Shown here: positions 1-34,488 of the stretch, piece after piece
Layout of the letters: every line of letters starts with the position of its first letter
Position numbering within the stretch: the first letter of the stretch is position 1
From: a virus
Taxonomy: Duplodnaviria > Heunggongvirae > Uroviricota > Caudoviricetes
Strand: one strand, 5' to 3'
Virus record (IMG/VR): IMGVR_UViG_2636415959_000003
Location: 1 to 42,713 of that record
Length of the DNA: 42,713 nt
The notes under the pieces: model-generated
What the model was told of the DNA's origin: nothing
The model's database searches: none
What the model saw: only the letters and a program-made list of their open reading frames with translations
Made by a program: the position numbers and the translations under genes

Positions 1-549
1 TCAGCTAGCTGGAAACTTTTTATACAGAGTTGAGAGCCCTACTCCATACGTTTTTGATACGCTTTGTCGTGATTCACCGGTTGCCATCCGCTCCCCCATT
101 TCCCGCCATTGCTCATCCGTGAACTTAGGCCTGCGACCACCAACTCGCCCTTTTGCCCTGGCTACGGCCAGCCCTGCTAAGGTACGTTCGCTATTAAGAT
201 CAGATTCATATTGTGCTGCGGAAAGGATGTTACGAAAGTTATAGCGGCCGCTGGCTGTTTTGAGATCCACGCCATCGGTAATACTGCGGAAGTTGATACC
301 CTTTTCCTGTAACTGCTGGAACATCAACAGCGCATGCAGAACGTTGCGGCCTATCCTGTCCAGCTTCCAGACCACCAGTTCATCCCCCGGCTGCATAGTG
401 GCGATCAGCCGTTTTAGAACCGGCCGATTCGATTTCCTCCCGCTGGCATGCTCTTCAAAAATTTTCTCACAACCCGCTGACTTGAGCGCCGTTAGTTGCA
501 ATTCAGTGTCCTGGTGGTTTGTTGATACTCGGGCATAACCGTAAATCAT
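1..549 (-). CDS. Serine DNA invertase (Hin/Gin/Pin/Cin family)
   Basis: 183 aa from ATG at 549 (GGAG RBS upstream) to stop at 1-3. N-terminal MIYGYARVSTNHQ catalytic-serine motif, VVWKLDRIGR, C-terminal HTH (GLSTLYKK), closely resembling Gin/Hin as recalled. Confidence 0.9.
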   Translation of the reverse strand: MIYGYARVSTNHQDTELQLTALKSAGCEKIFEEHASGRKSNRPVLKRLIATMQPGDELVVWKLDRIGRNVLHALLMFQQLQEKGINFRSITDGVDLKTASGRYNFRNILSAAQYESDLNSERTLAGLAVARAKGRVGGRRPKFTDEQWREMGERMATGESRQSVSKTYGVGLSTLYKKFPAS

Positions 550-601
550 GGGATTTCTCCTGTTATGAAAACAGGAGAAACGGCGAAGCATCACCAGATT
601 T

Positions 602-1132
602 TTGATGGTTATAAAAAAGGTTGGTTTGGGAGAAGGTTCAGCATTACCGGTTGGTGTGCCTGTTCCGTGGCCTTCAGCTACACCACCGACAGGCTGGTTG
701 AAATGCAATGGTGCAGCTTTTTCTGCTGAAGAATACCCGGAACTGGCAAAGGCTTACCCGACAAATAAATTGCCTGATTTACGCGGTGAGTTTATTCGTG
801 GCTGGGATGATGGACGCGGTGTGGATACGGGGAGGGCAATATTATCATCTCAGGGCGATGCCATACGTAATATCTATGGTGAGTTCAAGACTGTAAACGC
901 CGAAAATTATTCAATATGGGAATCAGTAGACTCTTTTAAGGGGGCAGTGGTGCCTTTGAACCCCTCAACGGACAATAGTTATTTCTCCATAATCAATAGT
1001 ATGTTGACACAAAGAACAGATGGCTCTGTTTACCCAACAGTGATTGGCCTTGATGCTTCAAGAATTGTTCCAACTGCAAACGAAAACCGTCCACGAAATA
1101 TTGCATTTAACTTTATCGTGAGGGCTGCATAA
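602..1132 (+). CDS. Alternative tail-fibre C-terminal variable segment (silent in this orientation)
   Basis: ORF in frame with the GLGE crossover codons (623-634). No credible own start (TTG/ATG inside the gix site). Would fuse to the constant fibre N-terminus after inversion. Confidence 0.6.
   Translation: MMVIKKVGLGEGSALPVGVPVPWPSATPPTGWLKCNGAAFSAEEYPELAKAYPTNKLPDLRGEFIRGWDDGRGVDTGRAILSSQGDAIRNIYGEFKTVNAENYSIWESVDSFKGAVVPLNPSTDNSYFSIINSMLTQRTDGSVYPTVIGLDASRIVPTANENRPRNIAFNFIVRAA
609..634. other. gix/hix-like inversion crossover site (left): TTATAAAAAAGG-TT-GGTTTGGGAGAA
   Basis: 26-bp site (12+2+12). Inner half-site GGTTTGGGAGAA is the exact inverted copy of TTCTCCCAAACC at 2478-2489. Resembles Gin/Hin site architecture. 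Confidence 0.7.
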
Positions 1133-1734
1133 TGGATAACGCTGTATTAAATAGCGAGCTTATTGCCACGAAGGCGGGGAATATTACCGTCTATAGCTAT
1201 GATGGTGAAACTCGGGAATATATTTCCACTTCAAATGAATATCTTGCCGTTGGCGTCGGTATCCCGGCATGTTCTTGTTTAGATGCACCAGTTACACATA
1301 AAGCTGGTTATGCAATCTGCCGTTCTGCAGATTTTAACTCATGGGAATATGTGCCAGACCATCGCGGTGAAATCATCTATAGCACCGAAACAGGAGAATC
1401 GAAAGAAATCACAGCTCTGGGTGATTACCCTGAAAATACAACCACTATCGCCCCGTTAACGCCATATGATAAATGGGATGGTGAGAAATGGGTGACAGAT
1501 ACTGAGGCACAGCATAGTGCCGCAGTAGACGCGGCAGAAGCACAGCGCCAGTCACTGATTGATGCAGCAATGGCTTCCATTAGTCTGATTCAGCTGAAAT
1601 TACAGGCCGGACGTAAACTGACGCAGGCAGAAACAACCAGACTTAACGCCGTGCTGGATTACATTGACGCGGTGACGGCAACAGATACCAGCACCGCGCC
1701 GGATGTCATCTGGCCTGAACTGCCGGAGGCGTAG
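1132..1734 (+). CDS. Tail fibre assembly protein (alternate copy)
   Basis: 200 aa; C-terminal STAPDVIWPELP motif typical of Tfa/Mu U-type chaperones. TAATG coupling to the upstream ORF. Confidence 0.7.
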   Translation: MDNAVLNSELIATKAGNITVYSYDGETREYISTSNEYLAVGVGIPACSCLDAPVTHKAGYAICRSADFNSWEYVPDHRGEIIYSTETGESKEITALGDYPENTTTIAPLTPYDKWDGEKWVTDTEAQHSAAVDAAEAQRQSLIDAAMASISLIQLKLQAGRKLTQAETTRLNAVLDYIDAVTATDTSTAPDVIWPELPEA

Positions 1735-2125
1735 GCCATTCAATATCGAGTGCTGTTGAAGTATTAATACGCATCAATAGCACTCGATATTCTTTCCATG
1801 CCAGTAACAGTTTCGTTTCATCATCTGTTGCCATACCTAAATCAACCGCATCCTGAAGCGGAGCTATTACATTCGTTGCCTCTGCTATCAGTGCAGATTT
1901 CTTTTCATCATTTATTAAGGCTAATTGTTCTGGTGTTGGAGAAGGACGGTCAACAATGACAGGATGACCGTTCTCACCACAGGTAATCATTTTTGTTACA
2001 CTCTGTGCATTAATCAGTGTTTTCCACTCTGATTCCGAGATTTCCACTGCATCATCAGGAATATTGGTGCCGTGAAATTCAGTCGAATAAAATCCGTTTG
2101 TCGATGCAGAATAAAAATATGACAT
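1706..2125 (-). CDS. Tail fibre assembly protein (currently expressed copy)
   Basis: Starts MSYFYSAS at 2125. C-terminus APLQDA..AWKEYRVLL..TSTALDIEWP resembles lambda Tfa C-terminus as recalled. Confidence 0.7.
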   Translation of the reverse strand: MSYFYSASTNGFYSTEFHGTNIPDDAVEISESEWKTLINAQSVTKMITCGENGHPVIVDRPSPTPEQLALINDEKKSALIAEATNVIAPLQDAVDLGMATDDETKLLLAWKEYRVLLMRINTSTALDIEWPTPPAVQAR

Positions 2126-2129
2126 TTCG

Positions 2130-2759
2130 TTAATATCCCATTGCAATGTAATACGCATCAGCAGATGAACCATATCCTGAACCGGGCGACACTGTAATAT
2201 TAAATCCAGTGTTCTGGACATTTGTCGCCGATACAGTCGGCTGCCCTGACGCGCCAGTAACGTTCAATGTAACTGTGACAGCAAGGACTCTTGAGAATGT
2301 CATCGGGAACCTTATCTCGTATGTTGAAGAAACATTCGGGGAGCCATTCAACTGACCGCACTGTAAAATTAAACCAGACGGAAATTTTTGCGCAGCAGCC
2401 GTTGCGGTATTACTTGACGCGAACAGGCTCATATCAGGTATCTGATTCGCCCCTGTACCTACATTCCTTTTAGCTGCTTCTCCCAAACCAAGGTTTGTGG
2501 TAATCGCTGTCGCCAGCTTTGCCACCAGTCCATCAACGTCACCATCATCGAGCGCGTCCAGTTCGGCGTTCGCGATAAACTGCCCCAGTACAGCCGCCAT
2601 CGTCGACGGTTGGCGCAGCGCTTTACTGACCTGTGCGCTGGATGCTTTACCCGAGGAGAATCCTTTCTTCAGTGCGGTTAGCGTCTCCCATTCCTCCTGC
2701 GAGGTAACATTTGCATTAGCATCTGTCGCAAACGCTTTAAAATCATTAGTTCCAGCCAT
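2130..2759 (-). CDS. Tail fibre protein (constant N-terminus 2759-2492 plus variable C-terminus 2489-2130)
   Basis: ATG at 2759 overlaps upstream stop (TAATG). The gix site lies in frame inside the gene (…TTNLGLGE…). Confidence 0.7.
   Translation of the reverse strand: MAGTNDFKAFATDANANVTSQEEWETLTALKKGFSSGKASSAQVSKALRQPSTMAAVLGQFIANAELDALDDGDVDGLVAKLATAITTNLGLGEAAKRNVGTGANQIPDMSLFASSNTATAAAQKFPSGLILQCGQLNGSPNVSSTYEIRFPMTFSRVLAVTVTLNVTGASGQPTVSATNVQNTGFNITVSPGSGYGSSADAYYIAMGY
2478..2503. other. gix/hix-like inversion crossover site (right): TTCTCCCAAACC-AA-GGTTTGTGGTAA
   Basis: 26-bp imperfect dyad inside the tail-fibre gene; inverted partner of the 609-634 site. Confidence 0.7.
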
Positions 2760-3439
2760 TAAAGTAATCTCCCCCATGCGCCGTCATCAAAACCGGCGAT
2801 GTATTCGTTATCCATGTCAAATCCAAAGAATTTTGTTCCTTCGGACGGTGTTTCGACCGAGGGTGTTTCAACGCCGCCAGCCCATACACCAGCAGCTTTA
2901 ACGGTGAGATAACCCTGTTTGATAGCGGCTATCAGTTCGAGTGACACATCAGAAATATCAGTCTCGGGAAAAACCCAGACCGATATCGTCATGTCCTGGT
3001 TATCGACGATCTGCATCTTCAGTCCAGAGCCTGCGGTAGCAGCGTCAAGGATGGGAGGCAGAGAGTCGTTCCGACCATCCCAGTTGTTGATAGCGATTTT
3101 CGCTTTCAGAATGATGCGGTACGTCTCATCACCCAGCGTCGTATAGCCAGAATCAGGATCATATGGCCCTTGCCAGATGCCCTGGTCATATCCGAGCCCG
3201 TCAGTGTCCCAGCTGAAATAAACGCCGCTAATTGGCTGGCTGACTATACGACTACGCCCAATCCACAGGCCGAGGATATCGAGTTGCACGCCAACCGCCG
3301 TATCGATATCGAAGGCTGTTACAAGCCCTGACATAGTGCTGGACACATCAATCAGCGGGCGGGTGCTCAGATCTATATGGTCAAAAAAGAGTGGCTTGGT
3401 AGCATGGTAGTTAGTGATCAGTTCGGTGTATTTGCTCAT
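2759..3439 (-). CDS. Baseplate/tail protein (Mu gp48-like, tentative)
   Basis: Position immediately upstream of the tail fibre; ATGA coupling at 3436-3439. Family assignment from gene order only. Confidence 0.45.
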   Translation of the reverse strand: MSKYTELITNYHATKPLFFDHIDLSTRPLIDVSSTMSGLVTAFDIDTAVGVQLDILGLWIGRSRIVSQPISGVYFSWDTDGLGYDQGIWQGPYDPDSGYTTLGDETYRIILKAKIAINNWDGRNDSLPPILDAATAGSGLKMQIVDNQDMTISVWVFPETDISDVSLELIAAIKQGYLTVKAAGVWAGGVETPSVETPSEGTKFFGFDMDNEYIAGFDDGAWGRLL

Positions 3440-4635
3440 GAGGTCACCGTGATAGTGACGTGACTCGCAACGCATGACGCAGATTCGTCATAAGCAATAT
3501 CGATATTTCCGCTTGCGACTGAGTCAGAGGATTTGCCGATGAGCAGCTCCTGAATGTCGTAATAGCGAGCACTGCCTCCGCTTACCACGCCAAGGTTTGC
3601 CGGGGAATAAATACGACTCAGCAGAACGTCATCGCCAATTGCCAGGCCATTTATATAATCGGCAACAGCCTGTTTAATCTGCTCGCCGATTTGAGAGGTA
3701 TAGCCGGTAAAAACTTTCAGGGTAATGGCTACGAAAATTGGCACATCGGTAGAGCGCGAAAAACTGATGACGTGTGGATTACCGTAAGTATCCGGCACCG
3801 TGACAGAAGTTTTACCGTAAGTTGCGGTTCCCTGCCCTTTATTCCCCCTGATGGTCTGGGCTATCTCGGTAACATCCCCTCCATCGACGATGGCGGAAAT
3901 AGAGTGTGGCGGCAGCCCGTTGCTGTCGGTTGCCCCAGTGTCGTTCTCATATAGTTTGTGACGTGTCACGCCAGCAACATTAGCGATAGCACCGTCGACA
4001 CCTTCAAACGGTGTGATCGATGGTAGCGCGACGCTTTGCCCCTGCCGAATGCGCAGCTCTGCGTCGGTTTCGGCTGGTGAACCGACAGTAGCCGCAACTG
4101 GATTGGTTACCGACACCCAACCTCGGGTCGGGGTGTTGATAGTGGTAATAGTCCCGGCCAGCGCCGCAACCGAACCGCTATTCGCACATGTGGCCGTCAC
4201 CAGCACAGTACCATCAACGCCGATCGCTACACTTGCGGGAAAATTCCAGATAATGCCGTTTTTATCCCGTGCGGAGCCATTCGTGATAGTCGTGCCTGCC
4301 GTACCGGTTAACAGAAGGTCAGCAGTAGAGTTTGTCGCTACTTTTCGCGTGATCCCGTTAATTTTCACATTGCTGCTAAGCGCTGCGGCCTGCGCTGTCG
4401 TCGGTGAAAAAGAGTTGTAGATCCCGATAGCGGTATTGTTAGCGTCATGCACCGCAAGAGCCACCAGCGCGACCATTTGCCCATCTTTGCTGTCTGGTTC
4501 GAGGTAGGCATCACTACCGTAAATCTGCCTGAAATAGCTGGTCAGTGTATCTAGGATTGTCTGGTAATCAGGCGCACTAATCCCCTGGGCGGTTACCGTT
4601 GCCGATAGCCCCAGCGTGTCGAGGTTCAAAGCCAT
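3436..4635 (-). CDS. Baseplate J-like protein (Mu gp47 / P2 gpJ-like)
   Basis: 399 aa; position and size in a myovirus baseplate cluster. Confidence 0.6.
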   Translation of the reverse strand: MALNLDTLGLSATVTAQGISAPDYQTILDTLTSYFRQIYGSDAYLEPDSKDGQMVALVALAVHDANNTAIGIYNSFSPTTAQAAALSSNVKINGITRKVATNSTADLLLTGTAGTTITNGSARDKNGIIWNFPASVAIGVDGTVLVTATCANSGSVAALAGTITTINTPTRGWVSVTNPVAATVGSPAETDAELRIRQGQSVALPSITPFEGVDGAIANVAGVTRHKLYENDTGATDSNGLPPHSISAIVDGGDVTEIAQTIRGNKGQGTATYGKTSVTVPDTYGNPHVISFSRSTDVPIFVAITLKVFTGYTSQIGEQIKQAVADYINGLAIGDDVLLSRIYSPANLGVVSGGSARYYDIQELLIGKSSDSVASGNIDIAYDESASCVASHVTITVTS

Positions 4636-4989
4636 TTATGCCTCGCTTGTTACAGTCGTCTGGCCGTAGATTGTGTCAATGGAGGAAGTGAAGGTGACGC
4701 GACGGCTGGTGCCGTCATAATTGGTATCAAAGGAAAGAATCGACAGAACGCCCGGTGTGTCCTGTATGCGTTCGCGTATAGCCAGGATGTAGACGTCAGA
4801 ACGCTGCTTACCCAGCACTGACTGGACATACGGCGTGCCTTCTGTCAGGTCGAGAAACCACTGACCTCGCCACAGCTCGAAACGGGTTTTTACGGCCTGG
4901 GCAACGCACTCCGGGCTGTCGATAAGGAAGGTGTTGTCACCCTGCCCGAAAGTGTAATCGCCGTCAGCATCTTCGCGTCGGTATCGCAT
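4636..4989 (-). CDS. Small baseplate protein (gp46 / gpW-like, tentative)
   Basis: 117 aa between spike and J-like genes; coupled stops and starts. Confidence 0.45.
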   Translation of the reverse strand: MRYRREDADGDYTFGQGDNTFLIDSPECVAQAVKTRFELWRGQWFLDLTEGTPYVQSVLGKQRSDVYILAIRERIQDTPGVLSILSFDTNYDGTSRRVTFTSSIDTIYGQTTVTSEA

Positions 4990-5729
4990 TATTGCGGCCC
5001 TCCGGTAGTTCCCCCGCCAGTCTGTACTCCGCCATGTTTATGCGTGGCGACACTGATACCAGAAGCTGTTACGTCATTCGTTACCGTCACCGGCCCAAGC
5101 ATCGTCGCAGTACCGCCGCTTTCTCCCATTCCCTGAGACAGGTTACCGTTAATCGTTACGTTGCCGTTCAGCGTGATAGTCGGGGATGTGATTGTCGTTC
5201 CACCCTCAGCCGTAGCCGTGAGCTGGCCCGGTGTTTGAACGGTGATGTTATGTCCTGCGGCAACCTCTACGAACGCCGCACCATCATCGGTTCGCAGCTG
5301 CGCGGCGCTGGTACTGATACCGCTGATTTTCTGTGCTTGCGACTGCGGGCCAACGATGGCGAACGCATCAGATAAGTCATGCTGGCGCGGGTCGACGGTC
5401 TCCTGAACGCCGCCGCTCTGCCACCAGAAATCGATACAACGGTCGGCAAAGATCAGCAGGCACTCATCGCCTTCTTTTACCGGAAAGGTCAGCGTGCAAC
5501 CACCGCCGCGAGGAAAGATAACCGGCACATCCACCAGCGGTTTTAATTCGGTGGAGCCGTCGCCAACAATACCGCGAAGCGCCACCTCTGCTGTGCAGGT
5601 AACAGTATCAGGATCGAACGACTGAATGATGCCAGGCATCGCTACGCGCATCTGGGTAGACACCGAATCGGCAATGGCCTGCGCGGTCTGCTGCTCTCCG
5701 CCGATCTGTGATTGAGTTGGAATTGGCAT
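4989..5729 (-). CDS. Baseplate spike/hub protein (Mu gp45 / gpV-like)
   Basis: Start MPIPTQ at 5729 with GGAG RBS. Gly/Thr-rich C-terminus (HKHGGVQTGGGTTGG). Confidence 0.5.
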   Translation of the reverse strand: MPIPTQSQIGGEQQTAQAIADSVSTQMRVAMPGIIQSFDPDTVTCTAEVALRGIVGDGSTELKPLVDVPVIFPRGGGCTLTFPVKEGDECLLIFADRCIDFWWQSGGVQETVDPRQHDLSDAFAIVGPQSQAQKISGISTSAAQLRTDDGAAFVEVAAGHNITVQTPGQLTATAEGGTTITSPTITLNGNVTINGNLSQGMGESGGTATMLGPVTVTNDVTASGISVATHKHGGVQTGGGTTGGPQ

Positions 5730-5745
5730 AAAAACTCCATAAAAA

Positions 5746-5765
5746 AACCCGCTCGGCGGCGGGTT
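5746..5765 (-). terminator. Rho-independent terminator (7-bp stem AACCCGC/GCGGGTT followed by U7 on minus strand)
   Basis: Hairpin plus T-run read on the minus strand, immediately upstream of the gp45-like RBS. Confidence 0.55.
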
Positions 5766-5944
5766 ACTGATCAAACGTCAGGGTTTGAAGGCTGATTTGT
5801 CCGTGCTATTTATCTTCTTTGCAGCCCTGAATGTAGGTCTTGCTTAAAACTACGGTAACGTCGTGGTTTGTAGCGAGATACAGGCTGCCAAGGAAAAGCC
5901 GCAAGGCAATTTTTAGCTTCTCACGATAGGGGCCGGATACCTTT

Positions 5945-6295
5945 ATGCCAAAATCAGAAACAACCATAAAATTTACTCCAGCAATAGGCAAAGAATTGCT
6001 CTCCGTAATCCAGGATAACATACCTGAAAGTGACTATAAAATACGCAGGCGAATCAGAACTGCTGACTCAATTAATGCGGTTGGCACGCTCGTCGACATA
6101 ACTATCATCGTAGCCACGTCGTCACCAGCTTGTATAGCCATTGCATCTATCGCAAGAAAATGGATACAGACCAGATCATCCAAAAAAATAACAATGACCA
6201 CAGAGAAAGGTAAAATCGAAGTAGAAAACCTGACGTCAAAAGAACTGATTGAAGTAATGGAGCAGTGCAAGAACATCAGCTTCAAAGAGGAATAA
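5945..6295 (+). CDS. Hypothetical protein with central hydrophobic segment (moron, opposite strand to late operon)
   Basis: 116-aa ORF in an AT-rich island with a terminator 7 nt downstream; weak RBS. Overlaps a 71-aa minus-strand ORF (5806-6021) at the 5' ends, so one of the two is probably spurious. Confidence 0.45.
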   Translation: MPKSETTIKFTPAIGKELLSVIQDNIPESDYKIRRRIRTADSINAVGTLVDITIIVATSSPACIAIASIARKWIQTRSSKKITMTTEKGKIEVENLTSKELIEVMEQCKNISFKEE

Positions 6296-6301
6296 CTTGG
6301 C

Positions 6302-6329
6302 GCGCCGGTCAACCCGGCGCTTTTTCTTT
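6302..6329 (+). terminator. Rho-independent terminator (GCGCCGG-tcaac-CCGGCGC followed by T-run)
   Basis: Perfect 7-bp GC stem followed by TTTTTCTTT on the plus strand. Confidence 0.7.
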
Positions 6330-6333
6330 ATAC

Positions 6334-6684
6334 CTACTTCACCTTCACGCAGTCGTATGTTGCATACTGACGCGGCGCATTCATGCTGGCTTGCAGCCAC
6401 TGGGCATTGAGAATGGCTTTGCCGTTGCGCTTGATGTACTCAAGCCCAACCCAGCGGCCGGGTTGATTAGTTGCAACCGTCCATTCCATCTTGAGATTTT
6501 GATAATCTTCCTTGGCTTTCAGAAAGGTCATTTTCTGGTTTTCTGGCTTTACACCATTAATATGCATAAAACCATCATTACCTGCGGTGAGGCGATATGG
6601 CCCGCATTGGGTATCAGCCATTGCAGTTGAAGCTCCGACCAACGAAAGAACGGCTCCGCAGATAACATTCCTAATTTTTGTCAT
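6334..6684 (-). CDS. Secreted/periplasmic protein of unknown function (signal peptide MTKIRNVICGAVLSLVGASTAMA, AxA cleavage site)
   Basis: ATG at 6684 with AGGTG RBS, coupled (TGAtATG) to the upstream tail gene. Two Cys in the mature part. Sits in the AT-rich island. Confidence 0.6.
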   Translation of the reverse strand: MTKIRNVICGAVLSLVGASTAMADTQCGPYRLTAGNDGFMHINGVKPENQKMTFLKAKEDYQNLKMEWTVATNQPGRWVGLEYIKRNGKAILNAQWLQASMNAPRQYATYDCVKVK

Positions 6685-6685
6685 A

Positions 6686-7780
6686 TCACACCTGTACTTT
6701 TTGGAGCGTCGACTGACTATATAATTCACGACTGCCACGCGCGAAGCACATCAAATCCATGTACCATGCCTGACCTCTTGTGTCGCCAGTATAGTCGATA
6801 GCTTTGACGATATAAACGCCATCTGTCGCAATGCTTGCTGGTTGACTGACAGTGCCGTTAACGACGAGATTACCATTCATGTCGCTCTCTTGCAGCTTTG
6901 GTGAGGGTATGATATTTCCATTCTCGTCGTATTTGACCGCACGAAGATCTTCATTGTTTAACTGCGTTCGGTACACCGAAGCCTGATCGAGCTGGATAAG
7001 ACCATTAATGCGGATGTTCGGGTTTATCAGGCACCGCACGTTTACGCCGCCGCCCATCGTCTGTTGCGGCATACCAATCAGGCCAGTATTGGCATTCAAC
7101 ACAATGGCTTCGTGAATATATTTATCCTCCGGCACCATCTGGACCTGACCATCCACCAGCTGCCATGTCGCTTTGCACTGCGCTGCAATATTATCCATCA
7201 CGTTACGAGTGGATGAGTAAATCGCTCGGCCACGAGGAAACACGGTATCAGGAAAGTCGCCGGTAATGCCCTGCGTCACGCCGAACGCGTTAAAATCCTG
7301 CATCGTCGCCCGGTGCAGATCCGCTACGGTATAGCCAGCGGCAAGCGTGGTGATGGTAGTCGCGTAGAGGAACGCTTCATGATCTCCAATAGCCTGAATC
7401 AACACCCAGGAATCCGTAATGTTGTCCTTCCCGGTGACGGTGAAGCGAATATCACCGTCAAATATCAGGCCGTAGTTCTGACCGTTCACCTGCCCTACCT
7501 GGTCTGGTGAAATCTCCCGGGCGACACCAACCTGGCTCGCATCAACATCCGGCGCAATACCGTCATACCCGGCAATGATGCGAATTTTTGCAAACTCCTG
7601 CCCCAGTATCTTGTTCGTGGTATCGGTCGAAAGGTTGTAAATTTTCACGTTCGCCACGCGCGGCCAGCTTGTATCTGCCCACTCGATCTGGAACGTGACC
7701 TTAAAATCAGACAGGGAAACGCCATGCCCGTTCTGGTCCAACAGTTGCAGCTCAAAATGGCGCATCCAGTTAAGAGACAT
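6686..7780 (-). CDS. Tail/baseplate hub protein (Mu gp44 / P-like, tentative)
   Basis: 364 aa; size and position in a Mu-like tail cluster. Confidence 0.55.
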   Translation of the reverse strand: MSLNWMRHFELQLLDQNGHGVSLSDFKVTFQIEWADTSWPRVANVKIYNLSTDTTNKILGQEFAKIRIIAGYDGIAPDVDASQVGVAREISPDQVGQVNGQNYGLIFDGDIRFTVTGKDNITDSWVLIQAIGDHEAFLYATTITTLAAGYTVADLHRATMQDFNAFGVTQGITGDFPDTVFPRGRAIYSSTRNVMDNIAAQCKATWQLVDGQVQMVPEDKYIHEAIVLNANTGLIGMPQQTMGGGVNVRCLINPNIRINGLIQLDQASVYRTQLNNEDLRAVKYDENGNIIPSPKLQESDMNGNLVVNGTVSQPASIATDGVYIVKAIDYTGDTRGQAWYMDLMCFARGSRELYSQSTLQKVQV

Positions 7781-7782
7781 TT

Positions 7783-8088
7783 CTACTCCTGCACGAAAAT
7801 GAGGTGGCTGTGTGTGCCGAGGTTGGTTTTGGTGGGCTCGTCCGGTGCGCCTACATCGCAGCCAACGAGCAGCGCCCCGTTAATACCTAGTTGAGGATAT
7901 TGCTCAAGAAGATTTACACCGGTTACCAGCGGCACGCCAGAAAGAAGCGGTTCGCCACTGCTATCTTGTACATCCAGAATCCAGCCAGCAGAATCACGCC
8001 AAATGACTCTCAGCGTGTATGTTGTCTCTGCTAACTGAATGCGAAATAGCTGGTTATCCGGCGATAAAGGGATTTCAGTTACATTCAT
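7783..8088 (-). CDS. Small tail protein
   Basis: 101 aa; ATGA coupling to the upstream ORF; inside the tail cluster. Confidence 0.45.
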   Translation of the reverse strand: MNVTEIPLSPDNQLFRIQLAETTYTLRVIWRDSAGWILDVQDSSGEPLLSGVPLVTGVNLLEQYPQLGINGALLVGCDVGAPDEPTKTNLGTHSHLIFVQE

Positions 8089-8711
8089 TGGATACCTATA
8101 AAGTTACCAAGTCTGGTTCCTTTTAGTCCATCAAGCCACCCTGTTGACTTAATTACCGATTCATTTACTGGGGTGGTGGATTTAGTCCCGGAATTCTGCA
8201 CCGCCGATGTGCTGACGCCATCCTGCATATCTGATTTATCAGCAACGCTAACGCTCTGCGTCTGCGACATGATCACTTCACGCAGGGTAAGCGTGCAGTT
8301 CAGCACGTTCTCGCTGGTTTTGTCCGTTGTCACCTCAATGGCACGCACCAGCATATTGGTGTACACCCTCTTCCCGGTAACCACATCGAACGGTACGCGC
8401 TCAAGCTGCATATCCAGCAGCTTTTGGTATGTCTCCTTTGGGCTAAGCCCAGCGCTAAGACCGATTGAAGATGTATCAATGAAGTCCAGCAACGAACCGC
8501 CACCAGCGAAGCCGCATTCCATCGTGACTTCGCTTGGGCGCTTATACGCATGATCGGCGATGAAACCCGACGCGCTATTCGTTGTTGGCTTCTCCACCGG
8601 GTGCTCAGTAATTTCGAGCGCATCAGAATGCTTTTCAGAAACAACCACGCTGGGGATTAATATTCCAATTCGCCGGGATTTCTGGCGAAAAATAGCGGAG
8701 AGAATATCCAT
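8085..8711 (-). CDS. Tail protein of unknown function (immediately after tape measure)
   Basis: 208 aa; start overlaps tape-measure stop. Confidence 0.45.
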   Translation of the reverse strand: MDILSAIFRQKSRRIGILIPSVVVSEKHSDALEITEHPVEKPTTNSASGFIADHAYKRPSEVTMECGFAGGGSLLDFIDTSSIGLSAGLSPKETYQKLLDMQLERVPFDVVTGKRVYTNMLVRAIEVTTDKTSENVLNCTLTLREVIMSQTQSVSVADKSDMQDGVSTSAVQNSGTKSTTPVNESVIKSTGWLDGLKGTRLGNFIGIQ

Positions 8712-22143: not shown

Positions 22144-22401
22144 CTACTTCGTTTTTGCTTCCGCTCTTTTACGGCGGCGCTCTTCTTTCTTCTCGGCGTT
22201 TGCCATGTCCATGAATGCCTGCATGATCGAGTTCCTCATCATGTAACTGACAAAGTGATGATTGACGCAGCCGTTGAGACGGAGTTGCTCGCCAAACTCA
22301 TCCACCGAGGCCAATGCTTCCATCATGCCCTTCTCGCCTTTCATGAACTCTGAGAAGTCGCGCCCCGCTCTGGAGGCGCATTCAATGACACGATCACTCA
22401 T
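22144..22401 (-). CDS. Hypothetical small protein
   Basis: 85 aa; ATGA-coupled to the KilA-N gene. Confidence 0.45.
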   Translation of the reverse strand: MSDRVIECASRAGRDFSEFMKGEKGMMEALASVDEFGEQLRLNGCVNHHFVSYMMRNSIMQAFMDMANAEKKEERRRKRAEAKTK

Positions 22402-22895
22402 CCCGGAAGCCCGGGGATCGTAATCTGCAGCTGGTTAGCCAGGGAGTTAATCTCAGCGACCAACACTGGCTTCGTATAGCGCCATGCTGCCAGCCCTTGT
22501 CCGCAGAAGCTCGCCATGTCTTTCTTCTGGTCAAACTCATGACATTTCATGTTGAGCTGCGCACTTAAGCTGTTGCGATGCTGAAGTTCTCCGGTGAAGT
22601 AGTCATCGAGGACTTTATAGGCCGCGTACTTGAACCCGGGGTTTAACCAAGCCGCATAATCGTAAGCAACAAACTTCCCGCCATATGTTCCACCGTGTAC
22701 ACCGCGCTCAGTAAAAACCACAGATTCGTGGTTTTTCTCCAGCTCGGCTAAGAACTCTTTGGTCTGCTTGTTTCGCAGGTAGTGGTAAGGCGATTCAGAT
22801 TCACTTTTACCACTGGCTTTCCACATATCAGTGAGGCAGATCATGCCATCTTCACCGATACGAATTGGTTGATTGAAGAGGGTTAATGATTTCAT
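22398..22895 (-). CDS. KilA-N domain protein (possible antirepressor-like)
   Basis: Start MKSLTLF at 22895. N-terminal DGMICLTDMWKASGK…YLRNKQTKEFLAEL matches the KilA-N pattern. Confidence 0.6.
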   Translation of the reverse strand: MKSLTLFNQPIRIGEDGMICLTDMWKASGKSESESPYHYLRNKQTKEFLAELEKNHESVVFTERGVHGGTYGGKFVAYDYAAWLNPGFKYAAYKVLDDYFTGELQHRNSLSAQLNMKCHEFDQKKDMASFCGQGLAAWRYTKPVLVAEINSLANQLQITIPGLPG

Positions 22896-23043
22896 TTCGC
22901 TGATACCTTTTGGTGGTTGAGCCTGTTCTCGTAGATACGGGCAGCCCAAGAGCGGTCAGCGTTACCACTGCCCTATCTCAAGCTCTACCCCGAAAGGCTC
23001 TTGGTTGATATGCGCACGAGAATGCGCGGTTTACTGCGGACAT

Positions 23044-24593: not shown

Positions 24594-25094
24594 TCATTGA
24601 AAAGCAAGCGCGTTATGAGGATTTTTTGCAATTTTCCTCACATTTTCGCGATTGTTAAACGCATTTTGCAGCGGTTGGTACAAACAGAACAGTGAGGCGT
24701 TGATGATTTGCTTCACCTCTCTACGGATTGTCGAGATGCTTGGGTGTTTATACTGATTTCCGCCACGCGTCTTCATCAGGCGAGGCTTACTTACTGCATG
24801 CTGCCATGATGCAATTCGGATCTCGCTGGAGTTACAAACGTAGTAGGCGAAGACAACCCGCCAGGCATTTTCATCCACATTCTTCAGATAGTGACGAATG
24901 ACAGCATCAATGAGCATCCCGTCATCATCACTACATACCGGTCGTGATGCTTGCTGGGGCTCGACGGTAGCCATGAATCTGGCAATCATGTTGATCATCG
25001 CTTTATCAATCTTGCCGGTCTGGCACCATGCGCCCCACAACTGGAGCCACTGGTCTACCCATTGATGCTGGTCGTTGGTTAATTCCAGTTTCAT
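24594..25094 (-). CDS. Q: Late-gene antiterminator Q (Q82-type family, tentative)
   Basis: 166 aa immediately upstream of the late promoter/terminator region and lysis cassette. Confidence 0.65.
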   Translation of the reverse strand: MKLELTNDQHQWVDQWLQLWGAWCQTGKIDKAMINMIARFMATVEPQQASRPVCSDDDGMLIDAVIRHYLKNVDENAWRVVFAYYVCNSSEIRIASWQHAVSKPRLMKTRGGNQYKHPSISTIRREVKQIINASLFCLYQPLQNAFNNRENVRKIAKNPHNALAFQ

Positions 25095-31985: not shown

Positions 31986-32102
31986 GTTTTGCTCCGCTCA
32001 TGTGTAATCAACACCATGTTAATTCATGATGTGGATTAAATCAACATTATGGTGATGGAAAAAATCCACATGTTGTTTACCATGCATGGAGCGGAGGGTT
32101 TT
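31986..32102. promoter_or_regulatory. Right operator/promoter region (OR with PR and PRM)
   Basis: Minus-strand promoter TTGATT-17-TAACAT with the motif ATCCACATCATG between -35 and -10. Further copies of ATCCACATG/AAATCAACA motifs in the cI-cro spacer. Confidence 0.6.
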
Positions 32103-32813
32103 ATGAGTAGCATTTCTGAAAGAATTAAATTTTTACTGGCAAGGGAAGGCTTGAAGCAGCGGGATTTGGCTGAGGCTTTGTCGACTAGCCCACAGACCGT
32201 CAACAACTGGATAAAAAGAGACGCGTTAAGTCGTGAGGCGGCGCAACAAATATCTGAAAAATTCGGTTATTCTCTTGACTGGTTATTAAATGGAGAGGGT
32301 TCTCCAAAGAAGGATCTGGAGAGCAACATCCCGCCAGAGTCTGAGTGGGGAACTGTCGACGCTTGGGACAAAAATACCCCCCTACCTGACGATGAGGTGG
32401 AAGTACCGTTTCTGAAGGATATCGAGTTTGCGTGTGGTGATGGGCGTGTTCATAGCGAAGATCATAACGGCTTTAAACTGAGGTTCTCCAAGGCAACGCT
32501 CAGAAGGGTGGGTGCAAATAGTGATGGTTCTGGAGTGCTTTGCTTTCCCGCTTCTGGTGACAGCATGGAGCCCGTTATTCCTGACGGCGCAACGGTAGCA
32601 GTCGATACAGGCAACAAGCGGATTATTGACGGCGAACTCTATGCTATTAACCAGGGCGATTTAAAGCGCATAAAGCAGCTTTATCGAAAGCCTGGTGGGA
32701 AGCTATTAATACGAAGCATCAATCGCGATTATGACGATGAAGAGGCTGATGAGGCAGATGTCGAGATAATCGGTTTTGTGTTCTGGTACTCGGTATTGCG
32801 ATATCGCCGATAA
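32103..32813 (+). CDS. cI: CI-type repressor (HTH_XRE plus LexA-like S24 autopeptidase domain)
   Basis: N-terminal HTH (KQRDLAEALSTSPQTVNNW), C-terminal GDSMEP…K catalytic Ser/Lys pair; GGAGGG RBS. Confidence 0.9.
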   Translation: MSSISERIKFLLAREGLKQRDLAEALSTSPQTVNNWIKRDALSREAAQQISEKFGYSLDWLLNGEGSPKKDLESNIPPESEWGTVDAWDKNTPLPDDEVEVPFLKDIEFACGDGRVHSEDHNGFKLRFSKATLRRVGANSDGSGVLCFPASGDSMEPVIPDGATVAVDTGNKRIIDGELYAINQGDLKRIKQLYRKPGGKLLIRSINRDYDDEEADEADVEIIGFVFWYSVLRYRR

Positions 32814-33079: not shown

Positions 33080-33559
33080 ATGGATAAAATTAATTACCCA
33101 CCCCTGTTTGAGCCAGGGCTCCATGACATGGATGAAGCTGGATTAAAATCGTATTGTGTCGATTGCTTTCCTTCATCATCCAGGCGAGGCATGCTATACT
33201 GTAATTTTATACAGCTACTCGAATCTATTCGAGAATTATCTGCTCAATATGGCTGTTTTACAGAAATATGGGTTGATGGTTCATACACCACGTCTAAACC
33301 AGAGCCTGATGATATTGATATTTTGTTGGTATGTGACTATAGCAATATAAACTCAATACCTGTCATGCTTCGGGGCCGCGTCGATAATTTGCTTGACCGA
33401 AACTACATCAAACAAAACTACAAAATTGATGTCCTACTACTCATGAAGAATTTAGATGACCCTAACTATGATTATGAGTACTGGCGTAGCTACTGGCGCG
33501 GTTGGTTTGGTTTTGATCGCAGTGAAAACCCGAAAGGGTTAGTGAGGATTTTTTTATGA
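33080..33559 (+). CDS. Nucleotidyltransferase-fold protein (minimal Pol-beta-like NTase), cargo gene A
   Basis: 159 aa; WVDGSYTTSKPEPDDIDILLV fits the hG[GS]-x9-13-DhDh NTase signature, with a later acidic residue (KIDVLLL). AT-rich; AAGG RBS. Confidence 0.55.
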   Translation: MDKINYPPLFEPGLHDMDEAGLKSYCVDCFPSSSRRGMLYCNFIQLLESIRELSAQYGCFTEIWVDGSYTTSKPEPDDIDILLVCDYSNINSIPVMLRGRVDNLLDRNYIKQNYKIDVLLLMKNLDDPNYDYEYWRSYWRGWFGFDRSENPKGLVRIFL

Positions 33560-34488
33560 ATGATAAATCAATGTTTAAAAATTGCGATAAACGCATTGAT
33601 TTCATTCAAAAAGAAGTCGATGCAATGAAGCAAAACAAAACCAGGTCCTTTGCTGACATGCTTCTTTATCGCTCCATGGATTCTCATCTGAGCGATTTGA
33701 AGGCCGAAAAATTAAAGCAAGATAGTCGGCACCCACTTATCGATTTTTTTGAGCTGCGGCTGAAAGGCTCTGAGGTTGACTTTGGCTCTATTCCTTTAGA
33801 GCTGCTTGGGGCTATTTCAACAAATCTTGCAGCGCTAATACAAAGAGCAACACACAAAATTGCCTCAGGCAAGGACTCAAAAAAAGTTCCCTACGACGTG
33901 AAAAGCTCCTTAAACCTCAGGCTGGCTGATTTATCCCCTGGGTCTACAAAATTGGGCGTCACCTTCTCTACAGGAATAGCAGAATTAGTAGAAACAGTAC
34001 CCAGCAAGGCTGTAAAAGGCATATTCGATTTGTTGTTAAGCGATGACGACAACAACTTCATGAATCACGTCGCTGAAATTGGATACAATTCCACTGTAAG
34101 CCTTAAGAGAATCGTAGAGGAATGCGATAAACACAACTTAACATTTGATGCAAGTTGGACCGGTCCATTTAGTAATGGCACCAAGGTGGCAACTATTGAC
34201 TCCAATAAAATTAAGTACTTGGTGAGTAGACTTACATCAACCATTTCATCCCCTCCCATTACTGAAACGGTTACAGGCGAACTGGTCGTTCTATCCAAAT
34301 ATGGGAAGCTGGAGCTTGATGTTGGTGGTGAACATTTAAAGGCTTCCTATCCGATTGAAATGCTAGATTTAATACAAAAAAAACACAAGGTCGGACAGAT
34401 TGTTTCTCTTTTAGTGGAGACTACTGAGATTCACAATGATCGCATAGGTCTGTACCGTAAAAACCATCTTGTTAAATCGGTTCTTTAA
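33556..34488 (+). CDS. Hypothetical 310-aa protein, cargo gene B (partner of the NTase-fold protein)
   Basis: ATGA overlap with gene A (33556-33559); no TM segments. One Rx4H match (RSMDSH), not diagnostic. Confidence 0.55.
   Translation: MNDKSMFKNCDKRIDFIQKEVDAMKQNKTRSFADMLLYRSMDSHLSDLKAEKLKQDSRHPLIDFFELRLKGSEVDFGSIPLELLGAISTNLAALIQRATHKIASGKDSKKVPYDVKSSLNLRLADLSPGSTKLGVTFSTGIAELVETVPSKAVKGIFDLLLSDDDNNFMNHVAEIGYNSTVSLKRIVEECDKHNLTFDASWTGPFSNGTKVATIDSNKIKYLVSRLTSTISSPPITETVTGELVVLSKYGKLELDVGGEHLKASYPIEMLDLIQKKHKVGQIVSLLVETTEIHNDRIGLYRKNHLVKSVL

Follow-up and report, generated by a model that had tools for sequence, protein, structure and literature searches.

A candidate EACC1-family toxin gene and its small overlapping partner in a cargo hotspot between the hub and spike genes of a Brunovirus-like prophage

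The DNA analysed here (hereafter referred to as the window) is the whole 42,713-nt record IMGVR_UViG_2636415959_000003, a complete lambdoid prophage of the class Caudoviricetes. Between its baseplate hub gene and its gpV-type spike gene, about 1 kb of DNA carries three genes (Table 1): one for an exported protein (hereafter referred to as the SP protein, after its predicted signal peptide), one on the opposite strand for a protein of the EACC1 family, and a short reading frame, orf53, which overlaps the start of the EACC1 gene. An original prediction, made from the sequence alone, had singled out this segment as accessory DNA of reduced GC content for which the tail module provides no explanation, and the comparisons described below agree with that description; orf53, to which the minus-strand terminator of the interval belongs, was absent from it. 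The new element at this locus is a prophage-borne EACC1 gene without a protease, accompanied by a novel obligate small partner, in a tail-module hotspot of which no description was found in the literature searched.

A cargo hotspot with two positions

The GC content of the slot separating the spike and SP genes (5730-6333) was 0.44, with values of 0.40 for the EACC1 gene, 0.44 for orf53 and 0.48 for the SP gene, against 0.51 for the hub gene, 0.575 for gpV and 0.52 for the whole window. On the evidence of alignments with relatives, the interval is built of two layers: a conserved SP gene, followed by a truly mobile cassette (5746-6320) consisting of a minus-strand terminator, orf53 (minus strand), the EACC1 gene (plus strand) and a plus-strand terminator. 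The variable region is bounded by the stop codon of the SP gene on one side and by the left hairpin, on the gpV side, on the other.

A megablast search with the flanks recovered the site from 45 of 5426 complete Escherichia coli genomes, only 12 of which carried the EACC1 cassette; E. coli C 236-04A, CX12 and E89 are natural lysogens of this kind. At least eight different occupants of the slot were found among the relatives. The commonest of the others was a plus-strand DUF4236 gene, the slot was filled by Phd/Doc in E. coli ECONIH5 and ABWA45, and further occupants encoded a 70-aa protein together with a 185-aa membrane protein, or proteins of 210, 181 and 128 aa; some were larger genes that replaced the SP gene too. 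Both presence or absence and replacement at a fixed site among syntenic relatives, the pattern expected of a moron or cargo hotspot, were found. These comparisons showed the hub-to-spike interval of this Brunovirus-like myophage prophage to be a cargo hotspot with two positions, the first, after the hub, holding an exported protein, here of phrog_3443, and the second holding a swappable cassette. We refer to a cargo hotspot, and not to a proven defence hotspot, because only Phd/Doc and EACC1 match known defence models.

An SP homologue directly follows the hub gene in almost all relatives, with 45-97% identity in every close E. coli relative and in Citrobacter prophages in which the hub is 51-60% identical, and conservation of this arrangement spans E. 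coli to Klebsiella, Salmonella and Yersinia phages, with hub identities of 51-91%. The SP gene was also present in 20 isolated temperate phages from at least four genera, with SEN34 and Mulock retaining the order hub, SP, one cargo gene, spike. Given its position after the hub in such distant relatives and in isolated phages, the gene is ancient in the lineage and lies outside the mobile unit. Over the 5.75-6.7 kb that had originally been considered a single inserted island, the cassette is indeed variably present (12 of 45), but the SP gene is conserved and only 5746-6320 is swappable, so that the single island does not stand. Conservation of both long reading frames in relatives, which would count against an accessory locus, was found for the secreted-protein gene; the EACC1 gene is instead variable cargo.

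The genes bordering the hotspot are themselves mosaic. Among relatives with hubs that are otherwise 88-91% identical (L001-L005), the last ~60 residues of the hub (window 6686-6900) occur in two unrelated versions (...NNEDLRAVKYDENGNIIPSPKLQESDMNGNLVVNGTV... and ...ALGNSEIAQSPGRITETEENGNRVLTGTT...), and a comparable mosaic is seen in the mature SP protein, over its N-terminal half. Recombination breakpoints thus reach into the genes that border the hotspot.

The two hairpins of the cassette had already been proposed as terminators, and both proposals held. The stem of the plus-strand hairpin begins 7 nt beyond the final base of the EACC1 stop codon, between the convergent EACC1 and SP genes, and this terminator may also be active on the minus strand. 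The minus-strand hairpin, recovered by a hairpin scan and in relatives, lies 40 nt past the orf53 stop codon and directly ahead of the ribosome-binding site (GGAG) and the start codon of gpV; it forms the gpV-side edge of the variable slot and travels with the cassette. Both hairpins were the top-ranked terminator-like sites on their own strands in the first 20 kb, over which the total number of such sites was not above chance (27, for an expectation of 19.9 +/- 4.4 in shuffled sequence). In diverged cassettes of relatives, the right-hand stem carries a compensatory change (GCGCCGG/CCGGCGC to GTGCCGG/CCGGCAC), and every cargo variant has a hairpin and a T-run at the gpV-proximal edge, with differing stem and loop sequences; the hairpins are considered credible on these two grounds. 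Read-through of the internal terminators by Q-modified polymerase, as suggested in the original prediction, is plausible, a Q antiterminator (PF06530) having been found in the prophage.

In the spacer separating orf53 from its terminator, the stretch TTACTGATCAAAyrTCAGGrTTT is near-invariant across cassettes with flanking genes ~50% identical, and 30 nt (5766-5795, TTACTGATCAAACGTCAGGGTTTGAAGG) are almost invariant where the coding regions of the cassettes have diverged by 20-35%. This conserved stretch might serve as a site of regulation or recombination, or as an RNA element.

The EACC1-family gene and its partner orf53

The plus-strand reading frame, which had been noted to run against the late operon, is a genuine gene, independent and with a terminator of its own. 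Substitutions among four diverged copies numbered 145, 85 and 360 at codon positions 1, 2 and 3, respectively, and the product matches the Pfam family EACC1. The same family was matched by 12 of 12 diverse subfamily members (best E value 1.1e-6), and homologues carry precomputed PF19953 matches and the NCBI name 'effector-associated constant component EACC1'. All 21 homologue clusters came from Enterobacterales prophages; a tblastn search with the protein yielded no match in 50,697 phage records or 72,556 plasmids. A PADLOC match to SngB of the Shango system (E value 0.002, 15 bits) was dismissed as noise, a remote subfamily member having no PADLOC match.

Kaur, Burroughs, Iyer and Aravind (2020; PMC7159879) described EACC1 as the constant 5' member of a conflict system of two genes, whose 3' member codes for a caspase-like peptidase joined to sensor or effector domains that vary; in the EACC1 protein, they noted a conserved transmembrane helix bearing a small-residue patch. 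Evans et al. (2025; bioRxiv 10.1101/2025.11.14.688446) found that the Avs12 caspase domain cleaves a Ktedonobacter EACC1 protein at Asp49, that the C-terminal fragment is toxic and that the cleaved protein permeabilises liposomes, in the context of phage-triggered defence.

The window protein has an N-terminal beta-alpha-beta unit, a linker, a hydrophobic segment rich in small residues and a C-terminal alpha/beta part, and the features by which the family is recognised, a central hydrophobic helix with a small-residue patch and alpha+beta flanks, are present. Within the hydrophobic segment (residues ~45-73; ATSSPACIAIAS / VGTLVDITIIVATSSPACIAIASIARKW), residues S59, S60, P61, A62, A65, A67 and S68 are invariant among close homologues. 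The AlphaFold2 (AF2) model, with a predicted local distance difference test (pLDDT) score of 66.6, displays beta-alpha-beta before this segment and beta-beta-alpha after it. The motif T39-x-D41-(S/A) is invariant in 13 of 13 variants, in a variable Gly/Ala-rich linker that the model places in a loop (residues 39-47) between the N-terminal unit and the rest of the protein. Characterised EACC1 proteins form pores after cleavage behind an Asp has removed their inhibitory N-terminal domain, and the invariant T39-x-D41 would fit a site of this kind.

No protease gene lies 3' of EACC1: the next gene after the terminator is the convergent SP gene, and the two-gene arrangement of a caspase-like or other protease with a sensor was not found at the locus. 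Likewise, the surroundings of five independent homologues, from Citrobacter, Klebsiella, Symbiopectobacterium and Enterobacter, contained only tail genes within 5-6 kb, and a Pfam scan of ~40 of the larger reading frames of the window detected no caspase-like peptidase, the only peptidase domain being that of the S24 repressor.

The gene present beside EACC1 in place of a protease is orf53, the start codons of the two genes overlapping head-to-head by 23 nt. It is clearly a genuine protein-coding gene, judging from its substitutions at codon positions 1, 2 and 3 (35, 23 and 131, respectively) and from the stop codons carried by the other frames in relatives. A longer minus-strand reading frame of 71 aa (start at 6021) was rejected because it is the 53-aa start, with its Shine-Dalgarno sequence, that is conserved in relatives. 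In relatives, amino-acid identity was 79-91% for orf53, versus 66-75% for EACC1. Searches of Pfam, PHROG, NCBIfam and PADLOC returned no match for orf53. An origin as an inverted duplicate or mimic of the inhibitory N-terminal domain of EACC1 was rejected at the sequence level (hhalign probability of 0.3%), and a profile-profile alignment with column shuffles gave a z score of 0.14, or -0.94 without the residues encoded by the overlap.

Relatives of orf53 formed 14 close clusters. Further proteins of 51-63 aa at 31-45% identity were the only remote relatives, a handful in all, returned by a profile search of 1.84 billion representative proteins, and a scan of contigs from species-representative genomes identified one locus only. 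Three of these remote relatives were located, on IMG/VR contigs, and each occupies the hub-spike slot beside a diverged EACC1 gene (36-47% identity), and the start overlap is exactly 23 nt in all three pairs. Among 13 distinct EACC1 variants, with identities down to 36%, every intact copy is accompanied by an intact orf53, always in this slot. As far as these sequences go, the pair was shown to have co-diverged as a unit. Two degraded loci were found. Both genes are disrupted in one IMG/VR relative (L025, 3640-4180); in E. coli M172-1 (L013, 2541-2845), EACC1 is truncated after codon 42 and orf53 is intact, a recent replacement having deleted the 3' end of EACC1 and put the gene for a 240-aa lipoprotein in place of the SP gene.

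The exported protein and the prophage context

The SP gene starts 1 nt past the hub stop codon, confirming the coupling to the upstream tail gene that had been proposed for it, and its product is therefore expected to be made at least during lytic growth. The proposed signal peptide and cysteine pair were also recovered. The N-terminus (MTKIRN-VICGAVLSLVGAS-TAMA|D) has a charged K/R region, a hydrophobic core and an A-x-A motif (A-M-A|D), without a lipobox, as expected of an exported protein of the SPase I type with a predicted Sec signal peptide. Among 46 homologues, the N-terminal sequence is variable but always hydrophobic, ending in A-x-A or a similar motif immediately before a conserved mature part, in which Cys27 and Cys112 are invariant. 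Structure prediction, one of the checks originally suggested, gave an eight-stranded beta-barrel (AF2, pLDDT 84.7), with residues 5-16 forming a detached low-confidence helix at the N-terminal end. A BFVD fold search with this model returned nothing significant, and no similarity to toxins or adhesins was found, the sole match being to a generic small beta-barrel fold. The avidin/calycin-like eight-stranded barrels are a possible class for the protein. Homologues fall into 103 clusters across Enterobacterales; some records bear the NCBI name 'STY1065/STY2022 family phage-derived protein', for which a literature search found no relevant paper.

The SP protein evolves faster than the hub, with identities of 59-97% and 88-91%, respectively, among close relatives. 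It is probably not strictly essential, since five relatives (L010, L013, L021, L022 and L030) carry unrelated signal-peptide proteins or lipoproteins instead. A protein exported to the periplasm by Sec could not take part in virion assembly, which is cytoplasmic; this argues for an accessory periplasmic factor and against a tail part. Our guess, by analogy with Cor and Llp (see below), would be a separate late-expressed periplasmic protein acting in exclusion or inhibition at the level of the envelope.

Identity of the prophage proteins to those of phi80 is 100% for the integrase and 98.7% for the S24 repressor. The phi80 Q protein was rejected as the antiterminator of the window, which has a different Q (PF06530). 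Among isolated phages, the nearest relatives are Citrobacter phage Omnitron and temperate myophages of the Brunovirus-like type, SEN34 and Mulock for example. On the minus strand, the Q gene is followed by genes for a LydA-type holin, lysozyme and Rz and then, in order, by those for terminase, portal, a Mu-F-like protein, DUF2213, a cement protein and the major capsid protein. The tail is contractile, with a module of the E217/XM1/Pam3-like type in the order sheath, tube, tape-measure, Dit-like protein, plug, hub, spike gpV, sheath initiator/W and J.

Several other features of the window were recorded. An invertible tail-fibre (host-range) switch of the Gin/Cin type occupies window 1-2800: a serine invertase gene (1-708, minus strand; Resolvase and HTH_7) is accompanied by 27-nt inverted repeats (609-635 and 2477-2503), and opposite the expressed fibre (2130-2777, minus strand) and chaperone (1706-2221, minus strand) lie a silent, alternative fibre tip (602-1132, plus strand; Collar domain) and the chaperone that goes with it (1132-1734, plus strand; Caudo_TAP). 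At the immunity region, just downstream of the cI-like repressor gene (32049-32813), a DUF6932 gene (33080-33559, plus strand; E value 1.7e-24) is overlapped by a 310-aa reading frame with no Pfam match (33556-34488, plus strand); the two may be another lysogen-expressed accessory or defence pair. A gene for a KilA-N / ORF11CD3 domain protein (22398-22949, minus strand) lies between the lysis cassette and the terminase genes, a position typical for an anti-repressor-like moron. Finally, a strong G+C hairpin (15178-15195) immediately follows, on the minus strand, the gene for the major capsid protein (15205-16146); as an internal attenuator or terminator, it may set the ratio of capsid to tail transcripts.

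Table 1. Positions of the hub-to-spike features and of related genes in the window
Feature	Position	Strand	Remarks
J	3436-4635		tail module
Sheath initiator/W	4636-4989		tail module
gpV-type baseplate spike gene	4989-5729	-	downstream flank of slot; PF18352, E 7e-41 (gpV N-terminal), and Apex motif
Intrinsic terminator of orf53	5746-5765	-	7 pairs then TTTTTTT; -11.1 kcal/mol
Non-coding spacer (orf53 3' untranslated region)	5766-5805	-	between orf53 stop codon and terminator
orf53, 53 aa (MVVSDFGIKVSGPYREKLKIALRLFLGSLYLATNHDVTVVLSKTYIQGCKEDK)	5806-5967	-	GGAG Shine-Dalgarno; codon-position signal
EACC1-family protein, 116 aa	5945-6295	+	Pfam PF19953
Intrinsic terminator of EACC1	6302-6320	+	seven G-C pairs then TTTTTCTTT; -14.9 kcal/mol, z -2.4
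Exported SP protein, 116 aa	6334-6684	-	phrog_3443, E 1.4e-45
Baseplate hub gene	6686-7780	-	upstream flank of slot; Pfam E217_GP41 = PF22759; phrog_196 'baseplate hub'
Plug	7783-8088		tail module
Dit-like protein	8085-8711		tail module
Tape-measure with SLT domain	8711-10714		tail module
Q antiterminator of late operon	24594-25094	-	PF06530, E 2e-21

Possible roles of the cassette and relation to known systems

The reading that we favour, although tentatively, is that EACC1 and orf53 form a latent-toxin and controlling-partner module of the prophage, with a role in abortive infection, exclusion or addiction. EACC1 would be made in the lysogen as a latent membrane-active toxin, the effector of one of these processes, and orf53 would stand in for the missing protease and sensor as its controller, most likely as an antidote or regulator. 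Since gpV, W and J can be reached only by late transcription through both hairpins, Q-driven transcripts crossing the slot would be antisense to the whole of EACC1 and sense for orf53; such read-through might silence the toxin and raise the level of its partner, sparing the prophage's own lytic cycle. Candidate triggers include a protease acting in trans, from an invader or the host, and loss of orf53; given the invariant T-x-D, proteolytic licensing may persist with a trans-supplied protease. A stricter version of this model, in which orf53 checks the EACC1 pore toxin, with no licensing by a cognate caspase, and the direction of transcription is the switch, with a toxin proform made from the plus strand in the lysogen and Q-driven silencing by antisense collision accompanied by orf53 overproduction, seems rather unlikely as a whole. 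If true, it would mean that the module kills cells infected with foreign phages and spares the carrier's lytic cycle, it would provide new control logic for a gasdermin-like bacterial pore former, and it would give the hub-spike hotspot of Brunovirus-like prophages its first defined function. If the partner were irrelevant or the toxin inactive, the cassette would be one more moron of unknown function.

Several observations weigh against the favoured reading. The PF19953 match of the window protein is borderline, its 23.6 bits equalling the gathering cut-off of 23.6 exactly (E value 5.3e-5); the EACC1 model is only moderately confident and a fold search with it was uninformative, and the invariant Asp could be structural instead of a cleavage site. 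The partner resembles neither a known antitoxin nor the N-terminal domain of EACC1, and the divergent overlapping gene layout is unlike that of classical type II toxin-antitoxin (TA) operons. A sigma-70 promoter scan upstream of EACC1 and orf53 revealed no convincing candidate, the matches lying inside coding sequence with a count at chance level, and no other occupant of the slot matched a PADLOC defence model.

Much of the probability beyond the favoured picture goes to a pure addiction role, in which post-segregational killing by EACC1 and orf53 would stabilise the prophage or the slot, with no anti-phage function. This reading, unlikely in its own right, would account for the presence of Phd/Doc in the same slot in two E. 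coli genomes, for the two-gene composition of the unit, a membrane toxin-like protein with a tiny, tightly co-evolving partner, and for the joint decay of both genes in L025. It sits less well with the phage-triggered defence role of the characterised EACC1 family, and the divergent overlapping starts and separate terminators again depart from classical TA operons. The E. coli M172-1 locus, which keeps orf53 while EACC1 is truncated, is compatible with either view. Addiction and abortive infection are not mutually exclusive.

The original prediction had considered the whole 5.75-6.74 kb to be one lysogenic-conversion island, with a secreted host-fitness or virulence factor as its main product and the opposite-strand gene as an unrelated small accessory. 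The GC content below that of the flanks, the signal peptide and cysteine pair, which are real, and the exchange of the SP protein for other exported proteins or lipoproteins in some relatives are consistent with this scheme, but it is made improbable by the persistence of the SP gene after the hub (hub identities of 51-91%) and in the isolated phages, by a variable boundary falling at the SP stop codon and the left hairpin, by the generic beta-barrel of a protein unlike toxins and adhesins, and by the coupling of its gene to the late operon, with synthesis at least in lytic growth. Nothing points to lysogenic conversion or virulence, the cargo being an EACC1-family pore effector, from a defence-linked family, together with orf53.

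A contribution of EACC1 to the phage's lytic cycle or to counter-defence, as an auxiliary holin-like lesion or as a decoy substrate for a host caspase-type protease, was judged more improbable still. The family is membrane-active, the gene lies within the late region and the invariant T-x-D would suit a decoy cleavage site, but a holin, lysozyme and Rz set is already present in the phage, the cassette can be dispensed with and is rare in relatives, all the homologue clusters are from Enterobacterales prophages with no caspase partner in the neighbourhoods examined, and late transcription opposes EACC1, because the gene is on the opposite strand with its own terminator. Finally, it is very improbable that the SP protein belongs to the baseplate as a structural or assembly part, a core tail protein that only looks secreted: its constant position and translational coupling to the hub gene in most relatives would fit, but the cleavable Sec-type signal peptide is kept in nature, not in sequence, across the 46 homologues, unrelated exported proteins or lipoproteins replace it in five relatives, and it evolves faster than the hub.

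EACC1 has only recently been shown to form pores upon activation by a protease and has always been described with a neighbouring caspase-like protease, and the locus raises the question of how a latent pore toxin is controlled without a licensing enzyme, for which it provides a genetically tractable model in E. coli. The analysis also defines a hotspot for a widespread group of temperate myophages and draws attention to a conserved exported beta-barrel protein.

The closest known system is the EACC1-caspase 'System 4' (PMC7159879). The window effector belongs to the same family (PF19953), is of the same size (~116-122 aa) and shares the small-residue hydrophobic segment and a linker Asp comparable to Asp49. 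In the window, however, a terminator and a convergent gene lie 3' of EACC1, in the place of the caspase-like protease and sensor, and the partner is a divergent 53-aa protein with an overlapping start codon. The module is embedded in a phage tail operon and is found in Enterobacterales prophages, whereas the EACC1-caspase system occurs in actinobacteria, cyanobacteria and other multicellular taxa. Bacterial gasdermins have no sequence or fold relationship to EACC1, and an adjacent protease is absent here, but the logic is shared, with an autoinhibited monomer forming pores after removal of an inhibitory segment (bioRxiv 10.1101/2025.11.14.688446).

Like TA modules, the cassette is a small two-gene unit combining a membrane-toxic candidate with a co-evolving tiny partner, and a true TA pair, Phd/Doc, fills its slot in relatives. 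It matches no TA family. It differs from type II modules, which are co-transcribed and of known families, in having divergent genes with a 23-nt start overlap and separate terminators, and from type I modules in that the partner is a conserved protein with a codon-position signal, not just an RNA, and the 116-aa toxin is larger. Each transcript of the cassette is necessarily antisense to the 5' end of the other gene.

Cor of phi80 and N15 and Llp of T5 are exported phage exclusion proteins encoded in tail regions. The SP protein is likewise small, exported and encoded among temperate-phage tail genes, and is replaced by lipoproteins in some relatives; it has no sequence or structural match to these proteins and is predicted to be a soluble periplasmic beta-barrel rather than a lipoprotein. 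Moron hotspots are known from the lom and bor genes of lambda and from the defence hotspots of P2 and P4. Among the occupants of the present slot, only the Phd/Doc class and EACC1 carry defence-related annotation. The slot lies between the baseplate hub and spike of Brunovirus-like myophage tails, and shares with the known hotspots a fixed site between conserved structural genes, differing cargo of lower GC content with terminators of its own, some of it reading against the operon, and Q-antiterminated late transcription that tolerates internal terminators.

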